The position numbers were made by a program, and so were the translations under genes. A stretch of DNA of 64,000 bases from an uncultured Gammaproteobacteria bacterium (GTDB lineage: Bacteria; Pseudomonadota; Gammaproteobacteria; CAWCPV01). The notes under the pieces were generated by a model. That model ran no database searches and had not been told where the DNA came from. It saw only the letters and a program-made list of their open reading frames with translations. Position 1 is the first letter of the stretch. The number at the start of each line of letters is the position of its first letter. This document shows positions 6,848 to 63,968 of this stretch, one piece after another. The stretch spans positions 1-64,000 of the forward strand of contig CAWCPV010000006.1 in the NCBI GenBank assembly GCA_963797555.1, in the 5' to 3' direction.

Positions 6848-6848
6848 C

Positions 6849-8315: not shown

Positions 8316-8421
8316 GAGGCCGCTCCGAGAATCACCCGCGGCGCCGAGCGGGAGGTCAGCGCCATGCCATGCCCTGCCCCTGGAGCGGCCGCCGTGCCGC
8401 GGCCCAGTCCTCGGCGGGCGG

Positions 8422-42857: not shown

Positions 42858-45836
42858 ATGGCACAGGACGACAGGGAAAGGGGCGGCCAGAAAAGGGCCT
42901 TCATCTCCAGCACCTCCATCGACCTGCCGGAGCACCGCAAGCAGGTGATCGAGGCCTGCCTGCGCATGGGCTACCATCCGGTGGGGATGGAGCACTGGCC
43001 CGCCCAGGATGCCGACGCCGAGACGGTGTGCCTGCGGGCGGTCGACCGGGCGGATCTGTTCATCGGCGTCTACGCCTTCCGTTACGGCTGGGTTCCGCCG
43101 GGACACGCGGTGTCCATCACCGAGCTGGAGTACCAGCGGGCGGTCGACAAGAAGAAGCCGCGGCTGCTGTTCTTCATGGACGAGGACTACCCGCTTCCCC
43201 CACGCCTGGTGGAGAAGGGGGAAGGCGGGAAGAAGCTGGAGGCGTTCAAGAAACGGGTCGGGACCGAGCGGGTGGGGAGCTTCTTCACCACCGAGAACGA
43301 CCTGCGCGGGCTGGTCGTCCAGGCCCTCGCCGCGCACCGCGAGACCGTCCCCCCGGAGCGGGAGCGCGCCGGCTCCCCCATCCCCGCAATCCCGCAGCCT
43401 TATGTCGCGCACCCCTATACCCTGCTCCAGTCCCGCCGCCTGGTGGGGCGCGATCGGGAGCTGAGTCTCCTCACCGACTGGGTGGCCAAGCCCATGAGCG
43501 AGGTATACGCGAGCCCGGTCCTCAACTTCATCGCCATCGGCGGGATGGGCAAGAGCGCGCTCACCTGGCACTTCTTCCAGGTCATCGCTCCCCAGGAGAT
43601 GCGCCCGCTCGCCGGGCGGCTGTGGTGGAGCTTCTACGAGCGCGACGCCGGCTTCGAGCGCTTCCTGCCCCACGCTCTGGCCTACTGCTCGGGCGAGCCC
43701 CTTGCGGAGGTGGAGCGGCTCGACCCCGAGACCCAGCAGGAGCGCCTGTGGCAGCTCCTCGATCAGCGGCCTTTCCTTCTGGTTCTGGATGGCCTCGAAC
43801 GCATCCTGGTGGCGTACAACCGCCTGGATGCCCCGCGCCTGCTCGACGACGAGTTGGACGAGGCCACCGTCAACCGCGTCGCCGACGCTGGCGGCCTGCC
43901 TCCGGGCAGCGGCGAGACCTACCTCGCCCGCCACCACCTGCGTGCCTGCACCGACCCGCGCGCCGGGCGCTTCCTGCAGCGGCTCACCCGCCTCCGCACC
44001 TCGCGCATCCTCGTCAGCAGCCGGCTCTACCCCGCCGAGATCCAAACCCGTACCGGTTCGCCTCTAGCCGGCAGCACCGTGGTCTTCCAGCAGGGGCTGG
44101 AGCCCGCCGACGCCTTGGCTCTCTGGCGGGAGCTGGGGGTGCGCGGGGCGCGCGACGAGCTGCTGCCCCTGTTCGAGAGCTTCGGCTACCACCCCCTTCT
44201 GCTCCAGGCCCTGGCCGGGGAGGTGGCGGACTTCCGTCCCGCGCCTGGCGACTTTGCCGCCTGGCGCGCGGCCCACCCCGCCTTCGACCCCGGCGCCCTG
44301 CCCCTCGCCCAGCGCCACCACCACATTCTGGAGCACGCCCTGGGAGGACTGGCCGAGGCCTCGCGCCGGGTGCTGTACACCCTGGCCGGCTTTCGCATGC
44401 CCACCGGCTACGCCACTCTGCGCGCCCTGCTGGTGGGGGAAGGGGCGCCCTGCGCCGACGAGGCGGCGCTCGACCGCACCCTCACCGAGCTGGAGGACCG
44501 GGGACTGGTGGGCTGGGAGCGGCGGAGCAACCGCTACGACCTCCATCCCATCGTCCGGGCTGTGATCTGGGCGGCCCTGCCCGAGGGCGACCGCCGCGCC
44601 GTGCTGGAGGAACTGCACGACTACTTCCGGGCCCAGCCCCTGGTGAAGGATTGGCGGAAGGAGGAGTCCCTCGCCGACCTGGAGCCGGCCATCGAGCTGT
44701 ACGACAAGCTCGTCGGCCTCGGCCGCTACCAGGAGGCATTCGAGCTGTTCCGCGACCGTCTCGATGACGCCACCCTCTACCGCCTGAGCGCCGCCCCCCG
44801 CCGGCTGGAGCTGCTGCGCGCGCTGTTCCCGGACGGGGAGGAGGCCCCGCCGCGCCTGGAGAAGGCTGAGGACCAGGGCTGGACCCTGAACGCTATGGCC
44901 CAGGCATATCAGTTCAGTGGCCAGCCGGGGGCTGCGGTGGGACTGTTCCGGCAGGGGGCGACCATCGCCGAGCGGGAAGGGAACAAGCGCAACCTCGGGG
45001 TCGGTCTCCGCAACGTCTCCGACGCGCAGCGGCTGAGCGGTGGACTCCACGGGGCGGAGCGGGCGGCGCGCGGGTCCCTGGTGCTGACGCGGCAGCCTGG
45101 GGAGGCATTCCGGGAGGCGGTGAGTCTCCAACGGCTCGGCACCGCCCTCGCCGCCCGGGGCGAGGGCGGTGCCGCCGCTCGGGCACTGATCCGTTCCAGC
45201 CGCCTTCAGGAAGCCCGGGATAATCGTCAGGGTGAGGGGGTGGTCGCCGCCTACCGCGCCGAGCTGGCGCTCTCCCAGGGCCGGGCCACCGAGGCCCGCG
45301 ACCTGGCCGAGCGCGCCCGGGCGCTGGCCGGGGTCTGGCGCCACGAGCATGACTTCATCCGCACCGCCCGCTTGCAGGGTGCCGCCGCCCTCCTGCTCGA
45401 CGACCTCGCCACCGCCGCCGAGCGTCTGCACCACGCCCTGCAGCGCGCCCGGACCGTGGAGCTGGCCGAGGAGGAGTTGCCCGTCCTCGTCGCCCTGGCC
45501 GAGCTGCACCGCCGGTGCGGCGAGCCCCAGATCGCCCGCGAGCTGCTGGAGCAGGTCTGGGAGCCCGCCGAGCGGGGCCCCTATCCCCTGTTCCACGCCG
45601 ACGCCCTGGTCGTGTTGGCCCAGATCGAGCGCGATGCCGGCAATACGCCGGGCGCCATCGCCGCCGCCACACGCGCCTTCCAACTCGCCTGGTGCGATGG
45701 CCCTCCCTACGCCTATCACTGGGGCCTGGAGGCCGCCCGCGCCCATCTGAAGGCCCTCGGTGCTCCCGAGCCCGAGCTGCCGCCCTTCGACCCGACCGCC
45801 CACGAGCCCATGCCGGAGGTAGAGATAGAGCCCTGA
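42858..45836 (+). CDS. NLR-like STAND NTPase: DUF4062-like N-terminal domain, NB-ARC/AP-ATPase core and TPR array
   Basis: N-terminus AFISSTSIDLPEHRKQ…LFIGVYAFRYGW…SITELEYQRA carries the conserved SST motif of DUF4062. Walker A FIAIGGMGKSALT and Walker B LLVLDGLE. C-terminal ~450 aa is TPR-like helical repeats. Confidence 0.75.
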   Translation: MAQDDRERGGQKRAFISSTSIDLPEHRKQVIEACLRMGYHPVGMEHWPAQDADAETVCLRAVDRADLFIGVYAFRYGWVPPGHAVSITELEYQRAVDKKKPRLLFFMDEDYPLPPRLVEKGEGGKKLEAFKKRVGTERVGSFFTTENDLRGLVVQALAAHRETVPPERERAGSPIPAIPQPYVAHPYTLLQSRRLVGRDRELSLLTDWVAKPMSEVYASPVLNFIAIGGMGKSALTWHFFQVIAPQEMRPLAGRLWWSFYERDAGFERFLPHALAYCSGEPLAEVERLDPETQQERLWQLLDQRPFLLVLDGLERILVAYNRLDAPRLLDDELDEATVNRVADAGGLPPGSGETYLARHHLRACTDPRAGRFLQRLTRLRTSRILVSSRLYPAEIQTRTGSPLAGSTVVFQQGLEPADALALWRELGVRGARDELLPLFESFGYHPLLLQALAGEVADFRPAPGDFAAWRAAHPAFDPGALPLAQRHHHILEHALGGLAEASRRVLYTLAGFRMPTGYATLRALLVGEGAPCADEAALDRTLTELEDRGLVGWERRSNRYDLHPIVRAVIWAALPEGDRRAVLEELHDYFRAQPLVKDWRKEESLADLEPAIELYDKLVGLGRYQEAFELFRDRLDDATLYRLSAAPRRLELLRALFPDGEEAPPRLEKAEDQGWTLNAMAQAYQFSGQPGAAVGLFRQGATIAEREGNKRNLGVGLRNVSDAQRLSGGLHGAERAARGSLVLTRQPGEAFREAVSLQRLGTALAARGEGGAAARALIRSSRLQEARDNRQGEGVVAAYRAELALSQGRATEARDLAERARALAGVWRHEHDFIRTARLQGAAALLLDDLATAAERLHHALQRARTVELAEEELPVLVALAELHRRCGEPQIARELLEQVWEPAERGPYPLFHADALVVLAQIERDAGNTPGAIAAATRAFQLAWCDGPPYAYHWGLEAARAHLKALGAPEPELPPFDPTAHEPMPEVEIEP

Positions 45837-46202: not shown

Positions 46203-48908
46203 GTGACCACGATCTATCTCTCCTCCACCTACCGGGACCTGCAGGACCATCGTCGCGCCGTGTTCGACGCGCTGCGCCAGTCCGGCTACGCGGTCATCGC
46301 CATGGAGGACTATGTCGCCCGCGACGACCGGCCGGCGCCAGCGTGTCTCGCCGACGTGGAGCGCTGCAACGTCTACGTGGGGCTGTTCGCCTTCCGCTAC
46401 GGCTACTGCCCGCCGGCGGAGCACGGCAACCCCGATGGCCTGTCCATCACCGAGCTGGAGTTCCGCCGCGCCGACGCCAATCCGCGGGTCCACTGTCTGA
46501 CCTTCCTGCTGGACGAGAAGGCACCGTGGCCTCCCGACCAGATGGACGCCGTCACCGGTGAGAACGAAGGCGGAAAGCGCATCAAGGCGCTGCGCGAGTA
46601 CCTTGGCCGGGAGAAGATGGCGAGCTTCTTCGCCGCGCCCCAGGAGCTGGCCAGCAAGGTCCAGTCCGCGATCACCAAGCTCCTCGCCGGTGAGAGATCG
46701 GTGCCCAGTCCCGGCGAAGACCGGCAAGCGCCGGTCACCTGGGATGTCGATGAGCTGGGCTCACCCTATCCGGGCCTGATGCACTTCACCCCGCGTTACG
46801 CCCCTGTCTACTTCGGCCGGGAGGCCAAGGTGCGCGAGGTGCTGGACCGGCTGCACCTGCCGGCGGGGCGGTTCGTCATCGTCAGCGGCGACTCGGGCAC
46901 GGGCAAGTCCTCGCTGGTGGACGCCGGAGTGCTCCCGCGGCTCGCGGCCGGGGCCTTGCCGGGGGGTGTCGCGGCCGAAACGGTACGCATCGTGCCGAGC
47001 CAGGGGACCGACCCCTTCGACGCCCTCCTTCGCGGCCTGCACACTCAGGCTGAGGAGGCGGGCCTCGACCCGTTCACGACGGCCCGGACGCTGGCCCGGC
47101 GCCCGGCCGACCTGAGCCCGACGCTGAGCCAAATCATCGAACGGGGTCTGACGCGCGACGCCCTGGTCCTGTTCTTGGACCAGATGGAGGAGCTGTTCGC
47201 GGGCACCGACCGCGCGGCACTGGAGGTCAACTCCGCCGGGCCGTTCCTCGCCGGCCTTTACCGCACCGCCCAGAACGGCAGGCTCTGGGTGATCGCCACC
47301 ATCCGCAGCGACTGGCTGCATCGCTGCTACGCCCACCCGGATATGCTCGCCGTGCTGCGCGGCCCCGGCCATTACCCCTTGGGACAGGTGTTTCCCCACA
47401 CCATGCACGACATGATCGTGCGGCCCGCCCACTGTGCCGGCCTGCAGGTGTCCGAGTCCCTCGCCAGCCGGCTCATCGCGGATGCCGGGGCCGAGCCGGG
47501 CAGCCTCCCCCCGCTCGCCTTCGTGCTGCAGCGGCTGTTCGAGCTGCGCCGGGACGATGCCTTGAGCGAGGACGTGTACCTGCGGGACCTGGGCGGACTG
47601 GAGGGAGCGCTTTCCGGCCATGCGGCCGAGGCGGAGGCGGCAATGGGCCAGGACCTCGGCCCGCAAGCGATCGAGGATAAACTGCCGCAGGTCTTCGAGT
47701 CGCTGGTCCGGGTGAGCGTCCAGGGCCTGCCGACTCGCCGCCGTGCCAAGCTCTCCGCCATCCCGGGCGACGTGCGCCCGGTGATCGAGCACCTATTGCG
47801 GGCCCGGCTGTTGACGGCGGAGGGCGAGGGCGCGGAGGCCCTGGTGTCCGTGGCCCACGGGCGCCTGTTCGATGCCTGGCCGAGCCTCGCCCGCTGGGTC
47901 GCGGCCCACCAGGACGACCTGCGCCTGCTGCGCCAGGGGGAGCTGGACGCCGCGGAGTGGGCGCGGCAAGGCTATGACCTGGTCCACCTCTGGCACCCGA
48001 AGCGCTTGAAGCGTCTGCAGCGGGTCATCGATGCCCTGCCGCCCGACCGGGCTGACCCCGAGGTGCGCGAATTTGCCTGGCCCCAGACGCGGATGCTCCA
48101 GCGGGTGGTCGCAGGTGCCATGAGCCACGACCACGAGGAGCGGCGCACGGTAGGGACCTACCTCGCCGAGCTGGGCGACCCGCGACCCGGGGTCGGCGTG
48201 GGTTCCGACGGCAACCCCGACATCGACTGGGTGCCCATCGCTGGCGGCAAGGTGGTCCTGGAGGAGAAGGCGGGTCAGGCCAATGTCGAACCCTTCGAGC
48301 TGGCCCGCTATCCCGTCACCAACGCTCAGTTTCATGCCTTCACAGCCGCCGAGGATGTCTACCGCGACCCCCGCTGGTGGCAGAACATGCCGGATGGCGC
48401 GAGCGACGGACCCGCCGCATCCCGCTGGCCCGAGACGAGCCACCCGCGGGTGGAGGTCTCCTGGTACGAGGCGGTAGCCTTCTGTCGCTGGCTGTCCCAC
48501 CGGCTCGGGTTCGAGGTGCGCCTGCCCACGGAGTTCGAGTGGCAGCAGGCAGCGACGGGCGGTGATCCCCAAAACGTCTACCCGTGGGGCGGGGAGTGGG
48601 ACGCCGCGCGCTGCAACAGCGCCGAGAGCGGCCTCAACCGCACCACCGCAGTTGGGCTCTATCCTGCCGGGGCGAGCGCTCAGCGCGTACTTGACCTGGC
48701 GGGGAACATCTGGGAATGGTGCCTGAACAAGTACGACGAACCGACTGAGCCGATGGGGTCCCCTGAGGACCGGGGGGCGTTGCGCGGCGGTTCGTGGAAC
48801 TTCAACTCCGACTACTGTCGCGCCGCCTCCCGCACGTCCGTGCACCAGGACTTCCGCAACGACAACATCGCGTTTCGTGTGGTTCGTCCCGTATCTTCAG
48901 ATCACTGA
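46203..48908 (+). CDS. STAND-like NTPase: DUF4062-like N-terminal domain, P-loop NTPase core, C-terminal FGE-sulfatase (C-type-lectin fold) domain. Putative DGR target.
   Basis: N-terminus TIYLSSTYRDLQDHRRAV…VYVGLFAFRYGY…SITELEFRRA, with the SST motif, is paralogous to the N-terminus of 42858. Walker A VSGDSGTGKSSL and Walker B LVLFLDQMEE. C-terminus RYPVTNAQFHAF…WYEAVAFCRWLS…WEWCLN…GGSWN…FRVVRP matches the FGE/SUMF1 fold. Apparent GTG start. Confidence 0.75.
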   Translation: MTTIYLSSTYRDLQDHRRAVFDALRQSGYAVIAMEDYVARDDRPAPACLADVERCNVYVGLFAFRYGYCPPAEHGNPDGLSITELEFRRADANPRVHCLTFLLDEKAPWPPDQMDAVTGENEGGKRIKALREYLGREKMASFFAAPQELASKVQSAITKLLAGERSVPSPGEDRQAPVTWDVDELGSPYPGLMHFTPRYAPVYFGREAKVREVLDRLHLPAGRFVIVSGDSGTGKSSLVDAGVLPRLAAGALPGGVAAETVRIVPSQGTDPFDALLRGLHTQAEEAGLDPFTTARTLARRPADLSPTLSQIIERGLTRDALVLFLDQMEELFAGTDRAALEVNSAGPFLAGLYRTAQNGRLWVIATIRSDWLHRCYAHPDMLAVLRGPGHYPLGQVFPHTMHDMIVRPAHCAGLQVSESLASRLIADAGAEPGSLPPLAFVLQRLFELRRDDALSEDVYLRDLGGLEGALSGHAAEAEAAMGQDLGPQAIEDKLPQVFESLVRVSVQGLPTRRRAKLSAIPGDVRPVIEHLLRARLLTAEGEGAEALVSVAHGRLFDAWPSLARWVAAHQDDLRLLRQGELDAAEWARQGYDLVHLWHPKRLKRLQRVIDALPPDRADPEVREFAWPQTRMLQRVVAGAMSHDHEERRTVGTYLAELGDPRPGVGVGSDGNPDIDWVPIAGGKVVLEEKAGQANVEPFELARYPVTNAQFHAFTAAEDVYRDPRWWQNMPDGASDGPAASRWPETSHPRVEVSWYEAVAFCRWLSHRLGFEVRLPTEFEWQQAATGGDPQNVYPWGGEWDAARCNSAESGLNRTTAVGLYPAGASAQRVLDLAGNIWEWCLNKYDEPTEPMGSPEDRGALRGGSWNFNSDYCRAASRTSVHQDFRNDNIAFRVVRPVSSDH
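48801..48890 (+). repeat. Variable repeat VR1 at the 3' end of the DUF4062-NTPase-FGE gene
   Basis: ~90 bp that is ~80% identical to the template repeat at 49062..49151. Most mismatches fall where the template has adenines (AAC codons). Confidence 0.55.
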
Positions 48909-49061
48909 TCACTGAGATGCGCGCGGAGCGCCGACATCGCCGATCCGGTCGCCCGTGGAACGGCGGGCGGTGCGTGGCGGCTCGCGGACCGTTTCCTCCG
49001 GACCGAAACGGGCCGCACGTAGTGCGCCCGAATGGGGCACGCCAGGATGGCGTGCATCAAC

Positions 49062-49151
49062 ATCGACTCCGACAACTGTCGCGCCGCCAACCGCAACAAC
49101 AACCACCCGGACGACCGCAACGACAACATCCGGTTTCGTGTGGTTCGTCCC
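49062..49151 (+). repeat. DGR template repeat TR_B (adenine/AAC-rich copy of the FGE 3' end)
   Basis: ATCGACTCCGACAACTGTCGCGCCGCCAACCGCAACAACAACCACCCGGACGACCGCAACGACAACATCCGGTTTCGTGTGGTTCGTCCC. Lies in the track ORF 49032..49427, which translates as NIDSDNCRAANRNNNHPDDRNDNIRFRVVRP. No promoter or RBS context found. Confidence 0.6.
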
Positions 49152-49362
49152 ACATCCTGCCCGCTTCCAGGCGCGGCTCCGGCGGCGTGGGGCCGGGCCC
49201 CGCGGGGGCACCACCCTCCCGCAACGCCGGTCGAGCACGCTTGGCCGGCCGAGGCGGAAAGGGCTAGATGGCGCAGGTCGATCCGGTCCGCACCGGGGCA
49301 CATCCCTCCGGTCGGGCGCATACCAAACCAGGGCGCATCCTGGAGGCGACTCCCGATGCGCC

Positions 49363-49520
49363 CTACCTTCCATCCGCCTCGACGCGCCGGCGCCAACCGC
49401 CGAGCAGCCGCCCGATCTCCGCGGTGATCCGGCTCACGTGCTCGTACTGCCCGTCCTTCAGCCACGCCCAGCGGTTGATGAGACGCAGGTAGACCCGCAG
49501 CGATTGCAGCGCCACGTCGG
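49363..49520 (-). pseudogene. Avd-like (accessory variability determinant) C-terminal remnant
   Basis: …LRVYLRLINRWAWLKDGQYEHVSRITAEIGRLLGGW aligns with the C-terminus of the intact Avd at 62360..62758 (…LRLEKLRFLFRLSKDLGYLDLRRYEHVARSVDEVGRLVGGW). The N-terminal half is missing. Confidence 0.35.
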
Positions 49521-49576
49521 CGCGCTGCAGGGCGCGCGCCCGGGCGAAGCGTGCCCTAGTCGAGCGGCTCGCTGCC

Positions 49577-49927
49577 GTGCGGCTCACCCTGCACGCGGAC
49601 AGCGCCCAGGTCCTGCCGGTCGCGTGCGGCATTCCCTGGCTCGGCTTTATCGTGTACCCGGACCATCGGCGCGTGAAGCGGCGCAAGGTGGTGGCCGCGA
49701 GCCGCCGGCTCACCGCCCGCTACGACGCCTGGCGCCGGGGCGACATCACCTTCGCCGAACTGGACGCCAGCGTGCAGGGCTGCATCGGCCACGTGCGCTA
49801 CGCCGATTCCTGGGGACTACGGGAACATGTGCTGGCCCGGTTCGACCTGTCCGAGCGATGGCCGTGGAAGCCCAGGACCCGGAAACAACCGCGAAGGCGC
49901 GCTGCGCGCGCCTTCAGAAACCAGTGA
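49577..49927 (+). pseudogene. DGR-type reverse transcriptase 3' fragment (thumb region only)
   Basis: LHADSAQVLPVAC..PWLGFIVYPD…R…L…G…E……H…R…L is colinear with the C-terminal ~110 aa of the intact RT at 61282..62373 (LHPDKTLVLATAEPATFLGFELHANG…). No finger/palm motifs are found upstream in any frame. Confidence 0.5.
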
Positions 49928-52801
49928 TCAGCGATCTGGAGATGGGGGACGAACCACCCGAAAACCGTAGTAGTCGTTGCGGGAATCCGGGCCGCCCCCG
50001 CTGCGGCGGGCGGCACGACAGAGGTAGCGAAGGGAGCACCAGCAACCGCCGCGCAGCGCCCGCAACTCGTCGCCCTTTGTGCCCGTGCGTTCGGGGTTTT
50101 GGTATTCGTTCAGGCACCACTCCCAGACGTTTCCCGCCAGATCGAACACGCCGTGGGGGCTCGCCCCGCCGGGGTAGAGCCCGACGGCGGTGGTGCGGTC
50201 GGGGCCGCCCTCGGCGCTGTTGCAGCGCGCGGCATTCCACTCCCGGCCCCAGGGGTAAACGTTGTTCGGGTCGCCGCCCGTCGCCGCCTTCTCCCACTCG
50301 ACCTCCGTCGGCAGCCGAACCTCGAAGCCGAGCCGATCCGAGAGCCAGCGGCAGAAGGCCACCGCCTCGTACCAGGCAACCGTCTCGCGCGGATGGTTGC
50401 CCTCCGGCCACCTAGGCTCCCAGGCCGCATCGAATCGCTGCGCAAGGCCCTTCCACCACGCGGGATTCGCAAAGCCCGACGGGTCGTCCAGGAAGCAACG
50501 GAACTGGCGATTCGTGACGGGGTAGCGGGCGATGTGGAAAGCGGGCAGGGTGCGCCGCTCGCCCTCTTGGTAGCGGAACTCGCCAGCGGGGACGTCGCCC
50601 CAGTCGATGTCCGGGAGCCACAGCCCAGTCTTCGGGTCCCGGGCGACGCCAACGCCGGGGCGGGTGTCCAGCATCTCCCCCTCCACCTCCACCGCGAGAG
50701 CCTGGCCAATGGCAGCGCGGGCAGCAGGGTCGGGGTCCCGATCGAGGTCGCTGAGCCGCGGGGTCCAGGCGGCCCGCACCCGCTCGAGGGTCGCGGCCGG
50801 AACCCTGGCCCCGCTGCGGGCGAGGCACTGGCCGGCCACCCAGGGCTGGGCGTCGGCCAGCCAGTCGATGATGAGGGTGCAGTCCTCCGGGTAGATGCCC
50901 GCGAGGAGCACCGTCGCCTCCTCCCAGCCGCTGCGCTGCCACCAGCGCTGCACCGGCCAGAGGTCGGCCGCGGCCAGCTCGCGGGCTTGGATCTTGGCCT
51001 GCATCCCCAGGGCGACGAAATACTCCTGCAGGAGCTGGTGGCCGAAGCGGACGTACCCGCCCGTGGGCTCGATCAGGCTCGCCCTGACCGCGAGGCGGTA
51101 CAGCTCCGGCTGCAAGAGCAGGGCGGCATCCCGCGCCGACACCGAGGTCACCGCCTCCGCGCGCCCCGTGTCCTCGCCGTAGCGCTGCATGCTCCAGGCC
51201 ATGCGCCCGGCGGCATCGAGCAGCCGCTCACCGTCAGGGGTCACTACCAGCGACCGGCCGGCCGGGTCCCGCCGACCGAGCCCCTCGCGCTCGATGAGGG
51301 TGTCGACGAAGTAACGGAACAGCACGCCGCGGTTGGCCGGAACCGTCCCGCTGCGCCGATACACCCCGAGCAGCATGACCAGCATGTAGGGGTTGCGCGC
51401 GAGGCGCATGAGGTTGCGGGGCGAGGCCACCTGCTCCGCCCAGACCCGGTAGTCGTGCCCGCTGGTCTTGTGGTAGACATCCGGGCTATCGCGCGGGACC
51501 TCCCGCGCCGAGAAGAACAGCTCCAGGTCGGCACCGGCCGCCTGCCACCTATCCCAGACGGAGCGCACCGCCTCGCCGCCGGCGACAGCCCAGAAGAATG
51601 CCTCGGCGGCCTCGGCGCCGCGCCGGGCACGCTCGGCAGCAGGCAGGTCTTCGGGCTGGGCGGCCGTGAGATAACGCTCGGCGAAGTCGGCGATGCCCGC
51701 AATGGTCAGGGGCTGGATGCGGATGGTGTCGAGCGCGAGGGCCAGGTCCTCACCGTAGTCGTCCTGACGGCAGGTGGCCAGCACCGGAATCGCTTGCGGG
51801 CGGGTCCTGTTCAGCCAGGTCTTTATCCGGCCCGCCTTGTCGGCCCAGGCGCCGGTGGGCAGCTCGTTCAAGCCGTCGAGGAGCAACACGGCGCGGCGGT
51901 CGGTCATCAGGGGGGGAAGGTCGGGCTGCAGCGGCTCGACCTGGCCGGCAAGAAAGTCTTCGAAGGGCGTTGCGTCAGTCCAGTCCCCGAGCTTCACGAG
52001 CAGCGGCAGCGGGGCCCGACCGTCCTCCCGCGCCCGGGCGGCGAGATCCGCGGCGAGCCGCCACAGGGTCGTGGTCTTGCCAGCCCCGGGCGGGCCGAGC
52101 AGCACGGCGCGCGTGATGTCGGGCGTCGGGAAAGCTTCGGTGATGTCCTCGAAACGCCGGGTCTGCTTCTGGCTGCCCGCGCTTCCCACGGCCTCGAAGG
52201 GGATGTGCTGCAGCTCCGGCCGGGCCACCAGCATGGGCAGCGGCGCCTTGTCGTCGCCGCCCAGCTCGGCGGTGCCGGCGAGCGGCGTGTACAGGTCCAC
52301 GTGCTGAAGCTCCCGCAGCTCCAAGCGCCGCAGGTAAGCCAGCTCCCGCTCGCGCGGCTGCTGGGCCGCGAGCGGCGGGGCGGGCACCGGGGCCGGACCT
52401 GGGGCCGGCAGACTCGCCAGCAGCCGGTCCAGGGCACCCTGGTAGTCGCGGAAGAGATCCAGCGCCTGGAGTCGGGCCAGGTCCGCGGGCAGCGGACAGT
52501 CCTCGACCCGCACCGGGAAGATGGGCCGGTCGCGCCGCCGCGCCATGCGCCGCTCCCGCGCCACCCAGGGCCGGGCGTTGGCGGTCGCGCTCACCAGCAC
52601 CACGAACGCGTAGGCCGCAGCGATGGCGTCTGCGATGCGCTGCTCCCACTCGGCTCCCGGCTGGATGTCGCTCACGTCGATCCAGCAGCGGTGGCCGGCC
52701 TCCTCCAGGTCACGCCCAATCTCGCGAGCAAGATCGGCGTTCTCCCGCGCATAGCTGATGAAGATGACGCTGTCCACAGAAAAAGACCGGGTTGGAGCCA
52801 A
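49928..52801 (-). CDS. NLR-like STAND NTPase: N-terminal TIR domain, NACHT-type NTPase, C-terminal FGE-sulfatase (C-type-lectin fold) domain. Putative DGR target.
   Basis: TIR: VIFISYARENADLAREIGRDLEEAGHRCWIDVSDIQPGAEWEQRIADAIAAAYAFVVLVS. Walker A LLGPPGAGKTTTLWRL and Walker B VLLLDGLNEL. C-terminus RYPVTNRQFRCF…WYEAVAFCRWLS…WEWCLN…GGCW…FRVVRP. Its stop codon abuts the RT-fragment stop (tgatca). Confidence 0.75.
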   Translation of the reverse strand: MAPTRSFSVDSVIFISYARENADLAREIGRDLEEAGHRCWIDVSDIQPGAEWEQRIADAIAAAYAFVVLVSATANARPWVARERRMARRRDRPIFPVRVEDCPLPADLARLQALDLFRDYQGALDRLLASLPAPGPAPVPAPPLAAQQPRERELAYLRRLELRELQHVDLYTPLAGTAELGGDDKAPLPMLVARPELQHIPFEAVGSAGSQKQTRRFEDITEAFPTPDITRAVLLGPPGAGKTTTLWRLAADLAARAREDGRAPLPLLVKLGDWTDATPFEDFLAGQVEPLQPDLPPLMTDRRAVLLLDGLNELPTGAWADKAGRIKTWLNRTRPQAIPVLATCRQDDYGEDLALALDTIRIQPLTIAGIADFAERYLTAAQPEDLPAAERARRGAEAAEAFFWAVAGGEAVRSVWDRWQAAGADLELFFSAREVPRDSPDVYHKTSGHDYRVWAEQVASPRNLMRLARNPYMLVMLLGVYRRSGTVPANRGVLFRYFVDTLIEREGLGRRDPAGRSLVVTPDGERLLDAAGRMAWSMQRYGEDTGRAEAVTSVSARDAALLLQPELYRLAVRASLIEPTGGYVRFGHQLLQEYFVALGMQAKIQARELAAADLWPVQRWWQRSGWEEATVLLAGIYPEDCTLIIDWLADAQPWVAGQCLARSGARVPAATLERVRAAWTPRLSDLDRDPDPAARAAIGQALAVEVEGEMLDTRPGVGVARDPKTGLWLPDIDWGDVPAGEFRYQEGERRTLPAFHIARYPVTNRQFRCFLDDPSGFANPAWWKGLAQRFDAAWEPRWPEGNHPRETVAWYEAVAFCRWLSDRLGFEVRLPTEVEWEKAATGGDPNNVYPWGREWNAARCNSAEGGPDRTTAVGLYPGGASPHGVFDLAGNVWEWCLNEYQNPERTGTKGDELRALRGGCWCSLRYLCRAARRSGGGPDSRNDYYGFRVVRPPSPDR
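49946..50035 (-). repeat. Possible decayed variable repeat VR2 at the 3' end of the TIR-NACHT-FGE gene
   Basis: Related to TR_B (…TGTCG.GCCGCC.GCCGCAGCGGGGGCGGCCCGGATTCCCGCAACGACTACTACGGTTTTCGGGTGGTTCGTCCC). Many mismatches fall at template adenines, but additional non-adenine differences are present. Confidence 0.35.
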
Positions 52802-58815: not shown

Positions 58816-60903
58816 TCAGGGGGCCGCTGGCGGCGGCTCCTGCTCGGGAATCGAGTCCAACTGGGAGAGCCACGCCGCCGCCTCGCCGTCGCTGGGCGCC
58901 CGGTAATCGCCGCGCGGTGACAGCGAGCCGCCCGACCCGACCTTGGGCGCGTTGGGCATGGCGCTGCGCTTGAACTGGCTGAGCTGGAAGAAGCGCTCGA
59001 GGAAAACCCCGAGCCACCGGCGTATTTCGGCGATGGTGTACTCGCGGCGCTCGGACTCCGGGATATCCGGCCACACGCCGCGCGCCGCATCGTGCCAGGC
59101 GCACCAGGCGAGGAAAGCGACCTTCGGCGGGGCGTAGCCGAAGCGCAGGATTTGGTAGAGATTGAAGTCCTGCAGCTCGTAAGGACCGACCACCGCTTCG
59201 GTGCGCTGATTCGGCTGCCCGCCCTCCCCGTCCGGCTCCGCGGGGACCAGCTCGGGACTGATCTCGGTCTCCAGCACCTCCTCCAGCACCGCACTCACCT
59301 CGGGGCCGAGCTGACGCGTCTTCGCTACCCAGCGGATCAGGTACTGGATCAGCGTCTTCGGGACGCTGGCGTTCACGCCGTAGTGGGCCATCTGGTCGCC
59401 CACGCCGTAGGTGCACCAGCCCAGGGCCAGCTCGCTGAGATCGCTGGTCCCGACCACCAGGCCGCCGTGGCGGTTCGCCAGCCGGAACAGCAGGCTGGTG
59501 CGTGCGCCCGCCTGCACGTTCTCGAAGGTCACGTCGTACACCGGCTCACCCCGCGCGTAGGGGTGATCGATGTCGCGCAGCATCTGCAGGCAGCCGGGGC
59601 GGATGTCCACCTCCCGCGCGGGGCACCCCAGGGCCGCGATGAGGCGCCGCGCCTGCGCCAGGGTGCGGGCGCTGGTCGCGAAGCCCGGCAGGGTATACGC
59701 AAGCACATGGCTGCGCGGCAGCCCCAGCACGTCCATGGCGTGGCCGCACACCAGCAGCGCCTGGGTCGAGTCGAGCCCCCCCGAGACGCCGATGACCACC
59801 TTGTCCACTTGCGCGGCGTGCAGGCGCTTCACCAGCCCCTGCACCTGGATCTCGTACACCTCCCGGCAGCGCTCGTCGCGCCGGTTCGGATCGCTCGGAA
59901 CATAGGGGAAACGCTCGTAAGCCCGCTCCGGCAGCAGCACGCCCCGGCTGGGAAGGTCGAGCGGCACCGGCACCGTACGATAGTCCTGCAGGTCCTGCCG
60001 GTGGCGGTAGCGTGCCTGGGCGAAGGTGCCCTGGCGCATCCTGTCCTGAACGAGACGCTCCAGGTCGACGTCCCCGGTGACGAGCTGGGCGCTATAGCGG
60101 AACCGCTCCGACTCCGCGATCCGCGTCCCGTTCTCGTAGATCAGGGCGTGCCCGTCCCAGGCCAGCTCCGTGGTCGACTCCCCGCTCCCGGCCGCGCAGT
60201 ACACGTAGGCCGCGAGGCAGCGCCCCGACTGGTTCTCCACGAGCTGGCGGCGGTAGTCCGCCTTGCCCACGGTGATGTTCGACGCGGACAGGTTCACGAG
60301 CACCGTGGCGCCCGCCAGCGCCGCATAGCTCGAAGGCGGGATGGGCACCCAGAGGTCTTCGCAGATCTCCACCGAGAAGGTCAGCAGCGGCTGACTCTCG
60401 GCCGCGAACAGCAGGCGGTTGCCGAAGGGCACGTCGCGGCTCCCGAGCAGGTCCACGGTGCTCCTGCCGGCCACGTCCGCCGGCGTGAACTGGCGCAGCT
60501 CGTAGAACTCCCGGTAGTTGGGGAGGTAGGTCTTGGGGACGATCCCCAGCAGCTTGCCGCGGTAAAGCACCGCCGCGCAGTTGTAGAGCAGCCCGTCCAC
60601 TTGGAGCGGCAGCCCCACTACCGCGACCACGGGCAGCGCATGGGAGGCGTGCAGGATACGCGACAGAGCGTCCACGCAGCCGTCCAGCAGCGCCTGCTGG
60701 TGGAACAGGTCCTCGCAGGAATAGGCCGACAGCCCCAATTCCGGGAACACGACCAGCGCCGCCCGCCGCGCCGCCGCCCGTTCCAGCAGCGCGATGGTCT
60801 GGGCGGCGTTGAACGCCGGGTCCGCCACCTTCACCTCGGGCGACGCGGCCGCGACCCGCACCATACGGTGGCGGTAAAGGTTGAAGAAGTCTTCGGTTTC
60901 CAT
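58816..60903 (-). CDS. nadE: Glutamine-dependent NAD+ synthetase
   Basis: N-terminal nitrilase/CN-hydrolase domain (…[16 protein letters not shown]…) and C-terminal NAD-synthetase domain with the PP-loop GVSGGLDST. Start at the ATG at 60903. The track's 120-aa N-terminal extension is the DGR template repeat, not coding. Confidence 0.88.
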
Positions 60904-61154
60904 GGCCTGTCGCGGAGCTTCGAGCCAGACCACTCTAGTGGAGCGAGCGCTGCCGCCGCAAGGGCGCTGAATCCTCGGTCCGGTAGCCGGCTGGAGGGCG
61001 ACCCCGATTCCCTGTGTAAGACATCCCGGCGGCTGTCGCTCCCGCCGGGAGCCAGGACAGCCGCCGGGCACCGCTCTCATCATGACCGGCGTTGGACGCG
61101 CGAGCGCACTCCTGGCCCGTCCTTGAACGGGCCGGCTCCCGCCTCGCAGCGTAC

Positions 61155-61267
61155 TGGCAACACGAAACCCCAGGTTGTTGTTCCGATCGGAGACGGTATT
61201 CCTGTTGCGGTTGGCGGAGCGCACGTTCTGCGGGGTATTGTTCCAACTGCCGCCGCGGTTCACGCGC
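61155..61267 (-). repeat. DGR template repeat TR_A
   Basis: On the minus strand it reads …AACCGCGGCGGCAGTTGGAACAATACCCCGCAGAACGTGCGCTCCGCCAACCGCAACAGGAATACCGTCTCCGATCGGAACAACAACCTGGGGTTTCGTGTTGCCAG. Compared with the VR at 62805-62920 there are 18 substitutions at TR adenine positions and only 2 elsewhere. Confidence 0.75.
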
Positions 61268-61281
61268 CGCCCTGACGCCGG

Positions 61282-62373
61282 TCAGGCTCCCGCGGGCCGG
61301 TCGGACCCGGCAGGTGCCGGGTCGAACCAGCCGCCGCGAAAGATGGCGTGGCGCAGCCGCCGCGTGTGCCCATGCGCGGCGTGCGCGACCCAGGACTGCA
61401 CCCGTTGGCGCACCTCCTTCTCGGTGACGGTCCCCTGCCCCCAGCGGTCGCGCAGCCCCCGCAAACGGTTGCGGAAGCGCCGGACATTGGATTCCGGCAG
61501 GCGCCGCCGCCCGTTTGCGTGCAGCTCGAAGCCGAGGAACGTCGCCGGCTCGGCGGTCGCCAGAACCAGGGTCTTGTCCGGGTGCAGCGACAGGCGGCGC
61601 CGGGCGAGATATTCGGCGATGCGCTCCCGCCATGCCGCGAGCTGCGCCGGGTCGTCGTGGAACAGTGCCAGATCGTCCACGTAGCGGACATAGCCGGGCG
61701 CGCGCAGGACTTCCTTGACGAAGTGGTCCAGGCCATCCAGGTAGACGTTGGCGAAGAGCTGGCTGGTCAGGTTGCCAATGGGCAGCCCGCGGCGGCGCTC
61801 GAAGGGTGTGAACAGGCCGTCACCCGGGTAGTAGAGATGGACCGGCTCCTGGGGATTGGAGCCGTCGACGATCAGGTCCAGCAAGCGCAAGGCGCGCGCG
61901 CAGGCGATGCGCCGGCGCAGATCCCGCTTCAGGATGGCGTGGTCGATCGCCGGAAAGTACCGGTAGATGTCGGCGCGCAGCACGTATCGGTGGCGGTCGC
62001 GGTAATGCTCGTAGCGGGCAACGGCGCGGTGGGTGCCCTTGCCCCGGCGGTTGGCGAAGCTGTCCGGGATGAAGCCGCGCTCGAACAGCGGCTCCACCAC
62101 GGCGCAAAGGGCATGATGCACCACCCGGTCGCGAAACGGCGCGGCCGACACCCGCCGCGGCTTGGGGTCGCGCACCTCCATCACCGTGTAGCCGCCGGGC
62201 CTCCACGAGCCGTCGCGCAGCGCCCGCTCCAGGACCAACAGGTTCGTCTCCAGTCCCGCCAGGAAGGCGGCGACGCCGGCCTTGGCGCGCTTGCCGCGCG
62301 CCGCCCGCTGTGCCGCCGCGTGCAGGGCGTGAAAGTTGGCGATGCCCTCGAACAGATGATCAGCCCTGCGCAC
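61282..62373 (-). CDS. DGR reverse transcriptase
   Basis: 363 aa. RT motifs include LPIGNLTSQLFANVYL (the DGR-specific [I/L]GxxxSQ) and YVRYVDDLALF (YxDD box). Compact size is typical of Brt-like DGR RTs. Confidence 0.85.
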   Translation of the reverse strand: MRRADHLFEGIANFHALHAAAQRAARGKRAKAGVAAFLAGLETNLLVLERALRDGSWRPGGYTVMEVRDPKPRRVSAAPFRDRVVHHALCAVVEPLFERGFIPDSFANRRGKGTHRAVARYEHYRDRHRYVLRADIYRYFPAIDHAILKRDLRRRIACARALRLLDLIVDGSNPQEPVHLYYPGDGLFTPFERRRGLPIGNLTSQLFANVYLDGLDHFVKEVLRAPGYVRYVDDLALFHDDPAQLAAWRERIAEYLARRRLSLHPDKTLVLATAEPATFLGFELHANGRRRLPESNVRRFRNRLRGLRDRWGQGTVTEKEVRQRVQSWVAHAAHGHTRRLRHAIFRGGWFDPAPAGSDRPAGA

Positions 62374-62758
62374 CGCGGTCGGCCTTCATCCAGCCCCCCA
62401 CCAGCCGCCCCACCTCGTCCACGCTGCGGGCGACGTGCTCGTAACGGCGCAGATCGAGGTAGCCGAGATCCTTCGATAGCCGAAACAGAAAACGCAGCTT
62501 CTCCAGCCGCAGGTTCACCCGGCGCAGGATCGGCGCCGCCTCGCGCGTGTAGGTGGCCTCGATCAGCCCTTCCAGCAAGTCCAGCGCCGTGCCCTGGATG
62601 CGGTCGCCCAGCAGGAAGCGCTGGCTGCGCGGGAACTTCTCCACCGTCGGGATCATCCACAGCAGAAACTGGTAGGCCCGCTCCAACGCCGGGCCGTGGC
62701 GCCGCGCCGGGTCGGGCTGCCGACCCGGCGCGGCGCGCGGTGGCTGGGTGCTCGCCAC
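62360..62758 (-). CDS. Accessory variability determinant (Avd), four-helix-bundle protein
   Basis: 132 aa. ERAYQFLLWMIPTVEKFPRSQRFLLGDRIQGTALDLLEGLIEA matches the bAvd / TIGR02436 four-helix-bundle family. Overlaps the RT start by ~14 nt. GTG start. Confidence 0.75.
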   Translation of the reverse strand: MASTQPPRAAPGRQPDPARRHGPALERAYQFLLWMIPTVEKFPRSQRFLLGDRIQGTALDLLEGLIEATYTREAAPILRRVNLRLEKLRFLFRLSKDLGYLDLRRYEHVARSVDEVGRLVGGWMKADRGAQG

Positions 62759-62801
62759 GACGGGGTAAAGGGGTAAAGAAGCTAAGCCCTAAGCTGCCGT
62801 T

Positions 62802-63968
62802 TCACGGCAGCGTCCTGGCAACACGAAACCCCGGGGCGCCGTTCCGAGCGGAGACGGGATACCAGCCGCGGCTGGCGGAGCGCACGAACAGCGGGGAAGA
62901 GTCCCAACTGCCGCCGCGGTTAACGCGCCGCCCGCAGTCGCCCCGGTGGCTGGCGCTGCCGTCGGCCGGCGCGCCCGCGTAGCTCTCGTCGTAGCAGTCC
63001 TCGGTCCATTCCCAGACGTTTCCCAGCATGTCGTAGAGCCCGAATGCGTTCGGCCGGAAGGAGCCCACCGGGGCGGTGTCGGGGTAGCCGTCGTCGCAGG
63101 CGAAGGCCGGCCAAGGGTACCGCGACGAATATTTGGTCTCGCCGGACCAATCATAGACGTTGGCGAACTGACAGGCGCGGTCCGTCGACGTGCCCCAGAA
63201 CCGGGGCTTCTGCGATCCGGCGCGCGCCGCGTACTCCCACTCCGCCTCGCTCGGCAGACGGTATCCCTTGCCGGTCTTCTCCGACAGCCACTCGGTGAAG
63301 CCCACCGCCTCCTCCCAGGTGACGTTGATGACCGGCTGGCGACCGCGGCCCCAGCCCTCGTCTCCCACCTGCCCACAGTCCCCGGCACGCGCGCACGCGT
63401 CCCACTCGTTGAAGGTCACCTCGTACTTGCCCAGCGCAAAGGGCTTCGCCAAGGTGACCTCGTGGGCGGGCCCCTCGTTGTTGTCGCGCCCCGCCTCGCT
63501 GGGCGGCGAGCCCATCACGAAGGACCCGGCCGGGATGACCACCATCGCCGGGCAAACGTCGCAGTCCTGGAACTCGGTGCCGGGCTTAGGGTAACGCGGC
63601 GCGGCGCTGGCGGTGCCCTTCCCGGACAGCTCGGCGAGGCGGCGCTTCGCCTGGGGTGCCACCGGGCTGTTCGGGTCCGCCTTGAGCGAGGCATCGAAGC
63701 GCGCGCGGGCCTGGTCCTTCTTGCCCAGCGCCAGATAGGTCTCGCCCAGGTAGTAGTTCGCCGGGGCATTGTCGGGCTCGACCTTGAGCCCTTGCTCGAA
63801 CTTGGCCGCCGCTGCGTCGAGCTTGCCCGCCTTCCTCAGCTCGAAGGCGTCGAAGAACAATTGCTGCGCGCCCCCTTGCTGCGCATGGCCATTGCCCGAC
63901 CCGACAGCGGTAGAAAAAAGCACCAACCACACCATGAGCCCAAACGGTTTCAGCAGAACCTTCCCCAT
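62802..63968 (-). CDS. Secreted TPR + FGE-sulfatase (C-type-lectin fold) protein, DGR variable protein
   Basis: Signal peptide, TPR segment (YYLGETYLALGKKDQARARFDASLKADPNS), then FGE/SUMF1 domain (…WEEAVGFTEWLS…WEWTEDCY…GGSWDSS…FRVARTLP). The C-terminal codons coincide with the VR. Confidence 0.8.
   Translation of the reverse strand: MGKVLLKPFGLMVWLVLFSTAVGSGNGHAQQGGAQQLFFDAFELRKAGKLDAAAAKFEQGLKVEPDNAPANYYLGETYLALGKKDQARARFDASLKADPNSPVAPQAKRRLAELSGKGTASAAPRYPKPGTEFQDCDVCPAMVVIPAGSFVMGSPPSEAGRDNNEGPAHEVTLAKPFALGKYEVTFNEWDACARAGDCGQVGDEGWGRGRQPVINVTWEEAVGFTEWLSEKTGKGYRLPSEAEWEYAARAGSQKPRFWGTSTDRACQFANVYDWSGETKYSSRYPWPAFACDDGYPDTAPVGSFRPNAFGLYDMLGNVWEWTEDCYDESYAGAPADGSASHRGDCGRRVNRGGSWDSSPLFVRSASRGWYPVSARNGAPGFRVARTLP
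62805..62920 (-). repeat. DGR variable repeat VR_A (last ~37 codons of the target gene)
   Basis: …AACCGCGGCGGCAGTTGGGACTCTTCCCCGCTGTTCGTGCGCTCCGCCAGCCGCGGCTGGTATCCCGTCTCCGCTCGGAACGGCGCCCCGGGGTTTCGTGTTGCCAG. Followed by a GCTGCCG-tgaaa-CGGCAGC hairpin that spans the stop codon. Confidence 0.75.

Follow-up and report, generated by a model that had tools for sequence, protein, structure and literature searches.

Two genes for STAND-type sensors converge on a short interval in the genome of an uncultured gammaproteobacterium, and the interval between them holds pieces of a DGR. The question raised by this locus is whether these pieces still diversify the two receptors, by themselves or through machinery encoded elsewhere. 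Evidence from the window (the whole 64-kb stretch of DNA that was analysed) points to a negative answer: the region from 48.77 to 50.06 kb, called cassette B here, is very likely a degenerate, non-autonomous DGR belonging to the clade 5D group of chromosomal elements with two STAND targets, inactive and with its sensors frozen. A decayed second DGR cassette had been proposed at this place in a first-pass annotation, and this description holds, the cassette being syntenic with intact relatives and its machinery being present as 3' fragments; all of the pieces named there were recovered at or near their expected positions. Two-STAND-target clade 5D DGRs, degenerate loci, diversification in trans and population data have been reported by Doré et al. 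(2024, PNAS; PMC10907252). The earlier statement that diversification of TIR/STAND receptors by a DGR is uncharacterised is therefore outdated for the class, and remains right as to biochemical function.

Target genes and layout of the cassette

The elements of cassette B and of its two target genes are as follows.

46203-48908, + strand: target gene 1, DUF4062-nSTAND1 NTPase-FGE-sulfatase (CLec-type), 901 aa, intact ORF
48774-48890, + strand: VR1, 117 nt, at the 3' end of gene 1, a direct repeat of TR_B
48921-48931, + strand: eroded VR1 target hairpin, GCGC-GGA-GCGC, best perfect stem 4 bp
48964-48987, + strand: 5' piece of TR_B, 24 nt, encoding the RGGS(W>R) framework
48988-49058, unstranded: insertion splitting TR_B, 71 nt, with small hairpins such as GCACGCCA-GGA-TGGCGTGC at 49037-49055
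49059-49151, + strand: TR_B core, 93 nt, adenine-rich and AAC-rich, syntenic with the TR of intact relatives
49224-49366, + strand: structured RNA scaffold, 143 nt, intact, with three main helices, an A-rich segment and the conserved unpaired motif GAUGGCGCRGG
49363-49560, - strand: avd remnant, the C-terminal part with its stop codon, about 49 residues by tblastn and up to about 60 by Pfam
49545-49560, unstranded: deletion junction, at which the first 70 or so codons of avd, the first 250 or so of RT and the intergenic region between these divergent genes are missing
49547-49927, + strand: RT remnant, the thumb/C-terminal part past the YxDD box, located by tblastn with RT_A and relatives
49893-49915, - strand: intact VR2 target hairpin, GAAGGCGCGC-GCA-GCGCGCCTTC, perfect over 10 bp
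49928-52801, - strand: target gene 2, TIR-NACHT-FGE-sulfatase, 957 aa, intact ORF
49946-50062, - strand: VR2, at the 3' end of gene 2, an inverted repeat of TR_B

The two target genes are convergent, and TR_B, the C-terminal Avd remnant on the minus strand and the RT thumb fragment lie between their 3' ends; the ORF of the RT remnant ends at 49927 and abuts the end of the gene 2 ORF at 49928. Domain assignments are clear for both proteins, with Pfam E-values of 9e-80 (nSTAND1), 9e-41 (FGE-sulfatase) and 7e-22 (DUF4062) for gene 1, and of 6e-43 (FGE), 2e-29 (TIR_2) and 8e-13 (NACHT) for gene 2. The best database homologue of gene 1 shares 62% identity and the same domain architecture, and no identical gene 1 protein was returned by exact-protein look-up. 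The ZnuA protein encoded nearby was found on one 2.8-kb Logan contig only, and scans of metagenome DNA with a degenerate VR1/TR_B pattern and with a scaffold-specific 39-mer gave no match. A scan for sigma-70-like promoter sites found none, such a scan being uninformative at the 67% GC of this genome.

Relatives of the RT fragment are encoded at 476 loci in GTDB genomes. Where both genes were detected in relatives, avd (-) and RT (+) point away from each other across a gap of about 40 bp, and three loci (L006, L009 and L011) have the layout VR1(+)-TR(+)-avd(-)-RT(+)-VR2(-), with spacings as in the window. Cassette B shows the order, the orientation and the STAND-CLec targets of a two-target clade 5D-type cassette, an assignment resting on synteny, scaffold, target domains and the published description.

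Loss of avd and RT, probably by one deletion

Neither machinery gene is intact. The avd remnant covers Pfam bAvd profile positions 51-106 of 107 at 37.5 bits, below the gathering score of 40; residues 82-123 of Avd_A, the Avd of the separate cassette A described below, match 49518-49393, and Avd proteins of relatives match 49518-49360 with 57-69% identity (both tblastn). The N-terminal half of Avd has been deleted. In the RT remnant no Pfam RVT_1 match was obtained and the catalytic palm is absent, so that the catalytic domain (motifs 1-5, YxDD) is not intact. What remains corresponds to residues 252-345 of RT_A (49556-49834, tblastn), shares about 70% identity with the RT C-termini of relatives, and lacks about 250 N-terminal codons relative to L006, L009 and L011. 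Changes affect 2/43 of its conserved columns, which is inside the range of intact relatives.

Collinearity with L009, of which positions 6217-7040 align with 48700-49545 of the window and positions 8055-8495 with 49634-50063, puts the deletion at about 0.9-1.0 kb. Since intact relatives carry avd (-) and RT (+) in divergent orientation, one internal deletion accounts for both 3' remnants. The earlier view that avd and RT are reduced to 3' fragments therefore stands, and the rearrangement invoked for their loss is not needed. An inversion of avd and the RT N-terminus was dropped for the same natural divergence of the two genes, and no sequence coding for the RT N-terminus turned up in the rest of the window.

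Other origins of the RT fragment were considered. The best 120 matches of a first protein search with this fragment were all fragments of at most 215 aa, a search in which the query itself selects for kept C-termini. A conserved, functional mini-RT was rejected, as the genome scan shows that most relatives are full length, and the RT fragments carry about twice the change at conserved columns; 5'-truncated RT loci make up 17/74 relatives in the clade. A 5'-truncated (LINE-like) retrocopy would have the wrong orientation relative to the VR.

The interrupted template and its two VRs

TR_B had been described as a 90-bp, adenine-rich copy of the FGE 3' end; its nature is as described, and its extent is longer and interrupted. 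The 24-nt 5' piece can be aligned both to the TR starts of five relatives and to the 5' portions of the two VRs. Between this piece and the core lies the 71-nt insertion, which is present in one copy within the window and in neither VR1, VR2 nor any aligned TR of relatives, so that TR_B is no longer contiguous and co-linear with its VRs. The joined 5' piece and core translate to RAVRGGSRNIDSDNCRAANRNNNHPDDRNDNIRFRVVRP, and the translation given for TR_B in the first-pass annotation was correct. Two framework codons are altered destructively, TGG to CGG (W to R) and GGN to CGG (G to R), and both are among the changes private to TR_B, at sites where VR1, VR2 and relatives agree with each other. 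TR_B keeps 24 adenines, mostly within AAC codons.

A 20-mer at the 3' end common to TR_B and the VRs occurs three times in the window (0.01 expected). VR1 (48798-48890) and the TR_B core (49059-49151) are 81% identical and differ at 10/24 A sites and 7/69 non-A sites (Fisher p = 1.4e-3), as anticipated from the earlier description of differences mainly at adenines with a few elsewhere. VR2 is, also as anticipated, more diverged, with differences from the core at 17/24 A sites and 15/69 non-A sites (p = 2.5e-5). With the joined TR_B, the counts become 10/24 A and 12/93 non-A sites for VR1 (13% non-A; p = 2.9e-3), and 17/24 A and 21/93 non-A sites for VR2 (23% non-A; p = 1.7e-5). When VR1 or VR2 was taken as the template instead, A-specificity was not significant. 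The adenine bias is real and not random, and it is impure: differences are enriched at template adenines yet not confined to them, which is not the pattern of a functional DGR. Full-length TR/VR pairs of intact relatives (at least 120 nt) have 0-4 non-A mismatches per approximately 100. Some pairs of relatives are also rich in non-A mismatches, mostly short or partial ones plus a 256-nt pair in L044, and because a few pairs mismatch heavily too, this measure is strong but not absolute. In VR1 and VR2, non-A mismatches come as close as about 20 nt to the 3' end, and therefore neither VR has been reset by a homing event. Many non-A sites also differ between VR1 and VR2.

Target hairpins downstream of the VRs

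A GC-rich hairpin downstream of the VR is needed for target recognition (PMC3240598). Among the VRs of relatives, 27/40 have, within 80 nt, a CGC-GNA-GCG-type hairpin that pairs perfectly over 7 bp or more, and the stems in these cases measure 7-11 bp. VR2 retains such a hairpin, which probably doubles as a terminator, and the 4-bp remnant after VR1 is all that is left of the other. A hairpin at 48950-48969 had been put forward as the IMH hairpin. It was rejected, as it lies outside the conserved position and overlaps the 5' start of the TR, and folding around it is not significant (z-score only -0.67).

The scaffold RNA after the template

The RNA scaffold that follows TR_B is still intact. 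A covariance model built without the window sequence matches the scaffold over its full length with 112.5 bits (E = 1.7e-21) and no non-standard pairs flagged, a score that is mid-range among the 42-135 bits of relatives. The structure is supported by covariation, with 96.7% of cells paired versus 36-47% in slid controls, and 0/500 shuffles reach the observed values. An Rfam search of the locus gave no match to the motif. With a structurally intact scaffold, TR_B could in principle bind a cognate RT-Avd, but nothing in its sequence suggests that it has been loaded by one since decay began. As a by-product of this analysis, a covariation-backed RNA motif of about 140 nt past the TR, absent from Rfam, could help to find TRs and orphan templates.

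Can the sensors still be diversified in trans?

A separate and apparently complete DGR, proposed earlier as a donor in trans and not part of cassette B, lies near the end of the window.

61146-63968, - strand: cassette A
62802-63968: target of cassette A (TPR + FGE)
62807-62933: VR_A, with a hairpin at 62793-62811
62360-62758: Avd_A
61282-62373: RT_A
61146-61272: TR_A

TR_A and VR_A differ at 18/28 A sites and 3/99 non-A sites, and RT_A and Avd_A look intact. In this cassette, avd is followed by a co-directional RT and the TR is downstream of RT. RT_A shares 42-47% identity with the RTs of four intact relatives over most of its length and 31% with the RT remnant over the thumb. TR_A is unrelated in sequence, and the scaffold model finds no match near it (best score 5.4 bits).

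The first-pass annotation had suggested that VR1 may still be serviced by the RT and Avd at 61.3-62.8 kb. Such a reading, in which TR_B would still be the template and VR1, perhaps also VR2, would be diversified by RT_A/Avd_A from 11 kb away, could draw on the kept AAC codons and scaffold RNA of TR_B, on the apparent integrity of RT_A and Avd_A and on the trans diversification of remote targets documented in Thiohalocapsa PB-PSB1 (PMC10907252). It is nevertheless very improbable. In the documented cases the VR equals the donor TR at all non-A sites, whereas 12/93 and 21/93 of these sites differ here; the 71-nt insertion and the framework changes of TR_B are not present in the VRs, and VR1 is without a target hairpin. 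Cassette A also has a different architecture, an RT only 42-47% identical to those of the four relatives and no scaffold homologous to that of TR_B, and recognition of RNA by RT-Avd is extensive and specific in the one solved system (bioRxiv 10.1101/2023.10.23.563531). Judged on these sequences, cassette A is not a plausible donor. Could another TR, acting as master from elsewhere in the genome, template the VRs, TR_B being a dead paralogue? Non-A mismatches to TR_B would follow from this, and remote targets matching TRs of other loci were described by Doré et al. (PMC10907252). However, no TR matching VR1 or VR2 at all non-A positions is present within the 64-kb window, where the 3' motif has three copies only, and neither VR qualifies there as a trans-serviced remote target sensu Doré et al.; VR1 would still be without its hairpin. 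Moreover, given the many non-A differences between VR1 and VR2, a single TR could not match both at present. The chance of a master TR is accordingly minimal.

A somewhat stronger case, although still an improbable one, can be made for a satellite, that is, an RT-less module of TR and scaffold served by a cognate clade 5D RT-Avd outside the window, with selection keeping the scaffold. The scaffold is intact and scores mid-range among intact relatives, it is common for a genome to carry several clade 5 DGRs (PMC10907252), and the 64 kb covered here are a part of a genome in which a cognate RT-Avd could lie elsewhere. In addition, two RT-truncated cassettes among the relatives (L013 and L029) have TR/VR pairs that are still almost perfect, showing no more than 2/103 non-A mismatches, a pattern expected of trans servicing or of very recent loss. 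However, the evidence of mismatches, insertion and hairpin counts against a satellite whichever RT serves it: complete homing from TR_B would copy its non-A bases, and full-length homing also the 71-nt insertion, and neither VR shows this. It is likewise unlikely that TR_B and its scaffold are a maintained satellite in a clade whose truncated-RT loci are trans-dependent satellites or 'locked' receptor alleles rather than wreckage.

A model of decay and its meaning

An inactive, degenerate cassette thus remains the preferred reading, and the following history is proposed for it. The ancestral order would have been gene 1 with VR1(+), TR(+), a structured RNA of about 140 nt, avd(-), RT(+), and gene 2 with VR2(-). 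By analogy with characterised DGRs, RT-Avd would have bound the TR RNA via its flanking scaffold, and adenine-mutagenised cDNA would have homed into the two VRs, with the GC-rich hairpin that follows each VR as its mark. A single deletion of about 0.9-1.0 kb, spanning the 5' ends of the two divergent genes, avd and RT, probably then removed the intergenic region together with the N-terminal half of Avd and the catalytic domain of RT. Template decay would have comprised the 71-nt insertion and the changes TGG to CGG and GGN to CGG, together with loss of the VR1 hairpin and drift of both VRs from TR_B at non-adenine sites. The sensor ORFs have stayed intact, and their ligand-binding tails would be frozen alleles under ordinary mutation. 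The unevenness of this decay counts against the proposed history, with an unbroken scaffold, 2/43 changed columns in the RT thumb and 24 adenines kept; it would be in keeping with a deletion of recent date or with a TR-RNA module that is still under selection.

So understood, the locus provides a clear and datable anatomy of the death of a chromosomal DGR that diversified NLR-like (STAND) sensors, leaving a once-hypervariable receptor frozen while the sensor genes are still intact. For annotation, it would be wrong to count loci of this type as active DGR targets, and adenine bias alone misleads unless non-adenine mismatches are compared with those of intact relatives. No new mechanism is implied, as the class has already been published together with its degenerate loci and with cases that act in trans (PMC10907252).

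Comparison with known systems

The closest described system is the clade 5D DGRs of Thiohalocapsa PB-PSB1, which likewise have two convergent targets with C-terminal CLec/FGE domains, central STAND NTPases (nSTAND1/NACHT) and TIR-type effectors. One PB-PSB1 locus (L049) encodes an RT of the same family, 63% identical to the RT remnant over 97 residues. In that genome, loci with missing or pseudogenised machinery stand beside complete ones (PMC10907252), and most of the incomplete loci are still diversified, their VRs equalling a TR at all non-A sites. Cassette B is unlike them in its mismatched VRs, its interrupted TR and the loss of one target hairpin, and the main text of PMC10907252 makes no mention of DUF4062, the N-terminal domain of gene 1.

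The RNA after TR_B can be likened in its general layout to the TR-flanking elements of the BPP-1 type, namely an Avd-binding stem-loop and a cPRT-stop stem-loop followed by adenosines (Handa et al., bioRxiv 2023/2024). In both, stem-loops lie just downstream of the TR, and one stem-loop here is followed by the A-rich stretch GGGCGCAUAnCAAA; the motif described here is clade-specific, belongs to no Rfam family and is supported by covariation across taxa. With the DGR of Bordetella phage BPP-1 (mtd-avd-TR-brt), cassette B also shares adenine-specific TR/VR differences, Avd, a GC-rich hairpin past the VR (PMC3240598), intact here at VR2, and a structured RNA after the TR, which binds RT-Avd in the characterised system (10.1101/2023.10.23.563531). 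The BPP-1 element is phage-borne and has a single target, with avd and brt co-directional and the TR between them. Cassette B, in contrast, is chromosomal and has two cytoplasmic STAND targets, its avd is divergent from RT with the TR beyond the avd 3' end, and its machinery has been deleted.

Remnants between the convergent STAND genes

In the window (67% G+C), two STAND genes with FGE tails have convergent 3' ends, and the 1.0 kb between them contains all the pieces listed by the first-pass annotation: an adenine-rich template repeat (TR_B), a minus-strand Avd C-terminus and a plus-strand RT thumb. Together with the variable repeats at the gene ends, VR1 and VR2, these form a diversity-generating retroelement (DGR) remnant, cassette B.

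46203-48908, +, gene 1: 901 aa, DUF4062, nSTAND1 and FGE-sulfatase domains
49059-49151, +, TR_B core: 93 nt, adenine-rich
49363-49713, -, ORF with the Avd remnant: bAvd profile positions 51-106, the C-terminal half only
49556-49834, +, RT remnant: matches residues 252-345 of the intact RT at 61282-62373
49928-52801, -, gene 2: 957 aa, TIR_2, NACHT and FGE-sulfatase domains

The RT remnant corresponds to the region past the YxDD box, and no RVT_1 match was found in it by Pfam domain search. Its ORF ends at 49927 and that of gene 2 at 49928, so the two stops abut, as had been noted. VR1 (gene 1 end, 48798-48890) is 81% identical to TR_B and VR2 (gene 2 end) is 74% complementary to it; a 20-mer common to the 3' ends of all three is present in 3 copies in the window (0.01 expected). 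A third STAND-like gene (42858-45836, +; 992 aa), with DUF4062 and a MalT-like TPR region and without an FGE tail, immediately precedes gene 1, which makes the DGR remnant part of a small island of genes of the conflict-system type. The flanks are housekeeping genes, with a molybdopterin-binding oxidoreductase upstream and znuABC-like genes downstream.

Adenine specificity of the repeats

VR1 had been described as differing from TR_B mainly at template adenines but also at some other sites, and VR2 as more diverged. Both descriptions hold in the A-specificity test that had been suggested, run against both VRs in the register first proposed: mismatches fall at 10/24 adenines and 7/69 other sites for VR1 (Fisher one-sided p = 1.4e-3), and at 17/24 and 15/69 for VR2 (Fisher p = 2.5e-5). 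No bias appears when VR1 or VR2 is taken as template in the same test; the TR-to-VR direction and the adenine bias at cassette B are therefore real. The separate, apparently complete DGR of the window, cassette A (61146-63968, -), is much cleaner, its TR_A (61146-61272, -) and VR_A (62807-62933, -) differing at 18/28 adenines and 3/99 other sites.

Ancestral layout and a probable deletion

Scanning one genome per species with the RT fragment returned 476 related loci, from sources including Accumulibacter, uncultured Gammaproteobacteria, Bryobacterales, Anaerolineae and Thiohalocapsa sp. PB-PSB1 (L049). Wherever both genes were detected by tblastn in 80 retrieved loci, avd lies on the opposite strand, divergent from RT, with ~40 bp between starts. 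Repeat analysis of three loci (L006, L009, L011) gave the full order VR1(+), TR(+), avd(-), RT(+), VR2(-), the TR lying ~220-320 nt downstream of VR1; this order and spacing are those of the window. The window is collinear with L009 on the left (48700-49545 = 6217-7040; VR1, TR, spacer and avd 3' part) and on the right (49634-50063 = 8055-8495; RT 3' part through VR2). The segment absent relative to L009 measures ~0.9-1.0 kb and takes in about the first 70 codons of avd, the first 250 of RT and the sequence between the two genes. One deletion across the divergent 5' ends of avd and RT would have removed it, leaving both genes as 3' fragments only. The proposal of a once-autonomous DGR, now decayed, is thus borne out by the 3' remnants and by synteny with relatives; a rearrangement need not be invoked for its loss, since one deletion suffices where avd(-) and RT(+) are naturally divergent.

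A structured RNA downstream of the template

Relatives have in common a ~140-nt motif between the TR and the avd 3' end. It consists of a hairpin, a single-stranded conserved GAUGGCGCRGG, a stem closing a variable hairpin (GUCCGCAC...GUCGGGC), an A-rich stretch and a terminal hairpin. RNAalifold assigns it 28 pairs, 21 with compensatory changes. Pairing holds in 96.7% of cells of the alignment that omits the window, versus 36-47% with slid partners; 133 cells are changed on both sides versus 17-28 in slid controls, and the observed covariation values were reached by 0/500 shuffles. A covariance model likewise built without the window sequence matches 49224-49366 (+) at 112.5 bits (E = 1.7e-21), full length and with no non-standard pairs flagged. 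The motif is present in 57/81 loci (relatives' scores 42-135 bits), spanning several phyla (among loci L006-L085, for example L017 768-899 and L053 3690-3828), and has no match in Rfam. By analogy with Bordetella phage (below), it would be the RT-Avd docking scaffold of this DGR family. Its 3' half (49312-49366) is identical by eye to L009 6812-6864 at ~53/55 nt, in loci only ~69% identical overall; other relatives have different, covarying stems there.

Decay of template and targets

Template and targets have decayed beyond the deletion itself. Alignment with the TRs of five relatives and both VRs splits TR_B into its core and a 24-nt 5' piece (48964-48987), which matches relatives' TR starts and VR1 48774-48797. 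The 71 nt separating them (48988-49058) are found in none of the five TRs, VR1 or VR2, and are single-copy in the window. This insertion consists of short GC-rich hairpins whose loops are 3 nt long (CGCAC-GTA-GTGCG and GCACGCCA-GGA-TGGCGTGC among them) and which resemble those downstream of VRs; a REP/MITE-like element and a local duplication are candidate sources. Joined TR_B translates as RAVRGGSRNIDSDNCRAANRNNNHPDDRNDNIRFRVVRP, with Arg at the framework Trp of GGSW (Trp in both VRs and relatives) and Arg at the Gly of GFR (Gly in VR2 and relatives, Ala in VR1). TR_B also stands alone at several non-A positions where VR1, VR2 and relatives share a base, so TR_B itself has drifted. Over the joined 117 nt, non-A mismatches to TR_B number 12/93 (VR1) and 21/93 (VR2), and they come as close as ~20 nt to the 3' end. 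Intact relatives have 0-4 per ~100 sites in their full-length TR/VR pairs (at least 120 nt), higher counts being limited to shorter or partial matches, one 256-nt pair of L044 and a degenerate Accumulibacter locus (L001).

In the Bordetella phage system, from which hairpin function is carried over to this family, homing is efficient only where a hairpin or cruciform directly follows the VR (Guo et al., PMC3240598). Of 40 VRs of related loci, 27 have within 80 nt a perfect GC-rich stem of 7 bp or more, typically ...CGC-GNA-GCG.... The hairpin downstream of VR2 (49893-49915) has 10 bp, and that of VR1 is reduced to GCGC-GGA-GCGC. CGCCCG-n8-CGGGCG (48950-48969), earlier put forward as a candidate in looking for IMH-like motifs and hairpins, is not this VR-downstream hairpin: it overlaps the TR start and lies in sequence folding no better than shuffles (z = -0.67).

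The thumb remnant has changes at 2/43 conserved columns (W to C, N to G), within the intact range (mean change 2.7% in intact and 5.0% in truncated relatives). Decay is thus uneven, with an unbroken scaffold and a nearly unchanged thumb versus several private changes in TR_B. Such a pattern could arise if homing was lost some time before a recent deletion, if discrete events struck the TR, or if some selection still acts on the scaffold, for example because its last hairpin is a terminator or because an unseen RT uses the RNA.

Suggested servicing in trans

It had been suggested that VR1 may be serviced in trans by the RT and Avd ~11 kb away. Cassette A, to which they belong, is a different kind of DGR: target, avd, RT and TR follow one another in a single orientation, the avd and RT genes overlap, and the TR comes after RT. 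Its RT is 42-47% identical to the RTs of four intact relatives over most of its length, and 31% identical to the RT remnant over the thumb. The scaffold model finds no match near TR_A (best 5.4 bits, noise), whose sequence is unrelated to VR1 and VR2. Where servicing in trans has been published, remote VR and donor TR agree at every non-A site; VR1 and VR2 show no such agreement. On these grounds the suggestion is unsupported. The genome may encode a cognate RT beyond the 64 kb, but the sequence of VR1, VR2 and TR_B still shows no recent homing: complete homing from TR_B by any RT would copy its private non-A bases, and full-length homing the 71-nt insertion as well, and neither VR carries either. 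We conclude that VR1 and VR2 are very probably frozen alleles.

A long ORF (58816-61263, -) with NAD synthase (CN_hydrolase + NAD_synthase) runs upstream through TR_A. The TR inside it gives a spurious N-terminal FGE-like match (NRGGSWNN...), an annotation trap; the true nadE start is probably an internal Met (METEDFF...) near 60900.

Truncated relatives and comparison with known DGRs

Internally 5'-truncated RTs were found in 17/74 assessable related loci (L010, L012-L016, L029, L031, L032, L036, L046, L047, L058, L071, L076, L078, L083), a count to which loci without the RT C-terminus, used as query, are invisible; about six more are interrupted. In the truncated loci avd is usually missing or cut. 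Two of them, L013 and L029, have near-perfect TR/VR pairs (at most 2/103 non-A mismatches), as would be expected of an RT-less cassette that is serviced in trans or of a very recent loss. An insertion of ~3.4-3.7 kb splits the RT in two uncultured Gammaproteobacteria (L023, 3834-4442 + 7815-8261; L085, 3455-4084 + 7788-8258) and is flanked by a duplication of ~12-23 RT residues; a mobile element is possible. In a protein database search with the RT fragment, the best 120 matches were all C-terminal pieces of at most 215 aa, whereas most genomic relatives are full length, which cautions against a mini-RT family; the short matches probably stem from word-index preselection, from pseudogene ORFs called as genes and from the shortness of metagenome contigs.

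In Bordetella phage, a structured TR-flanking RNA envelops RT-Avd (10.1101/2023.10.23.563531); the docking role proposed for the ~140-nt motif is carried over from that system for the RNA as a whole. The motif could serve as a TR finder. 'Degenerate' loci with machinery missing or pseudogenised have been reported beside complete ones (Doré et al., PMC10907252). From architecture and similarity rather than phylogeny, cassette B would be placed in clade 5D, the two-STAND-target group of Doré et al. 2024, and its kind of DGR is already described in the literature.
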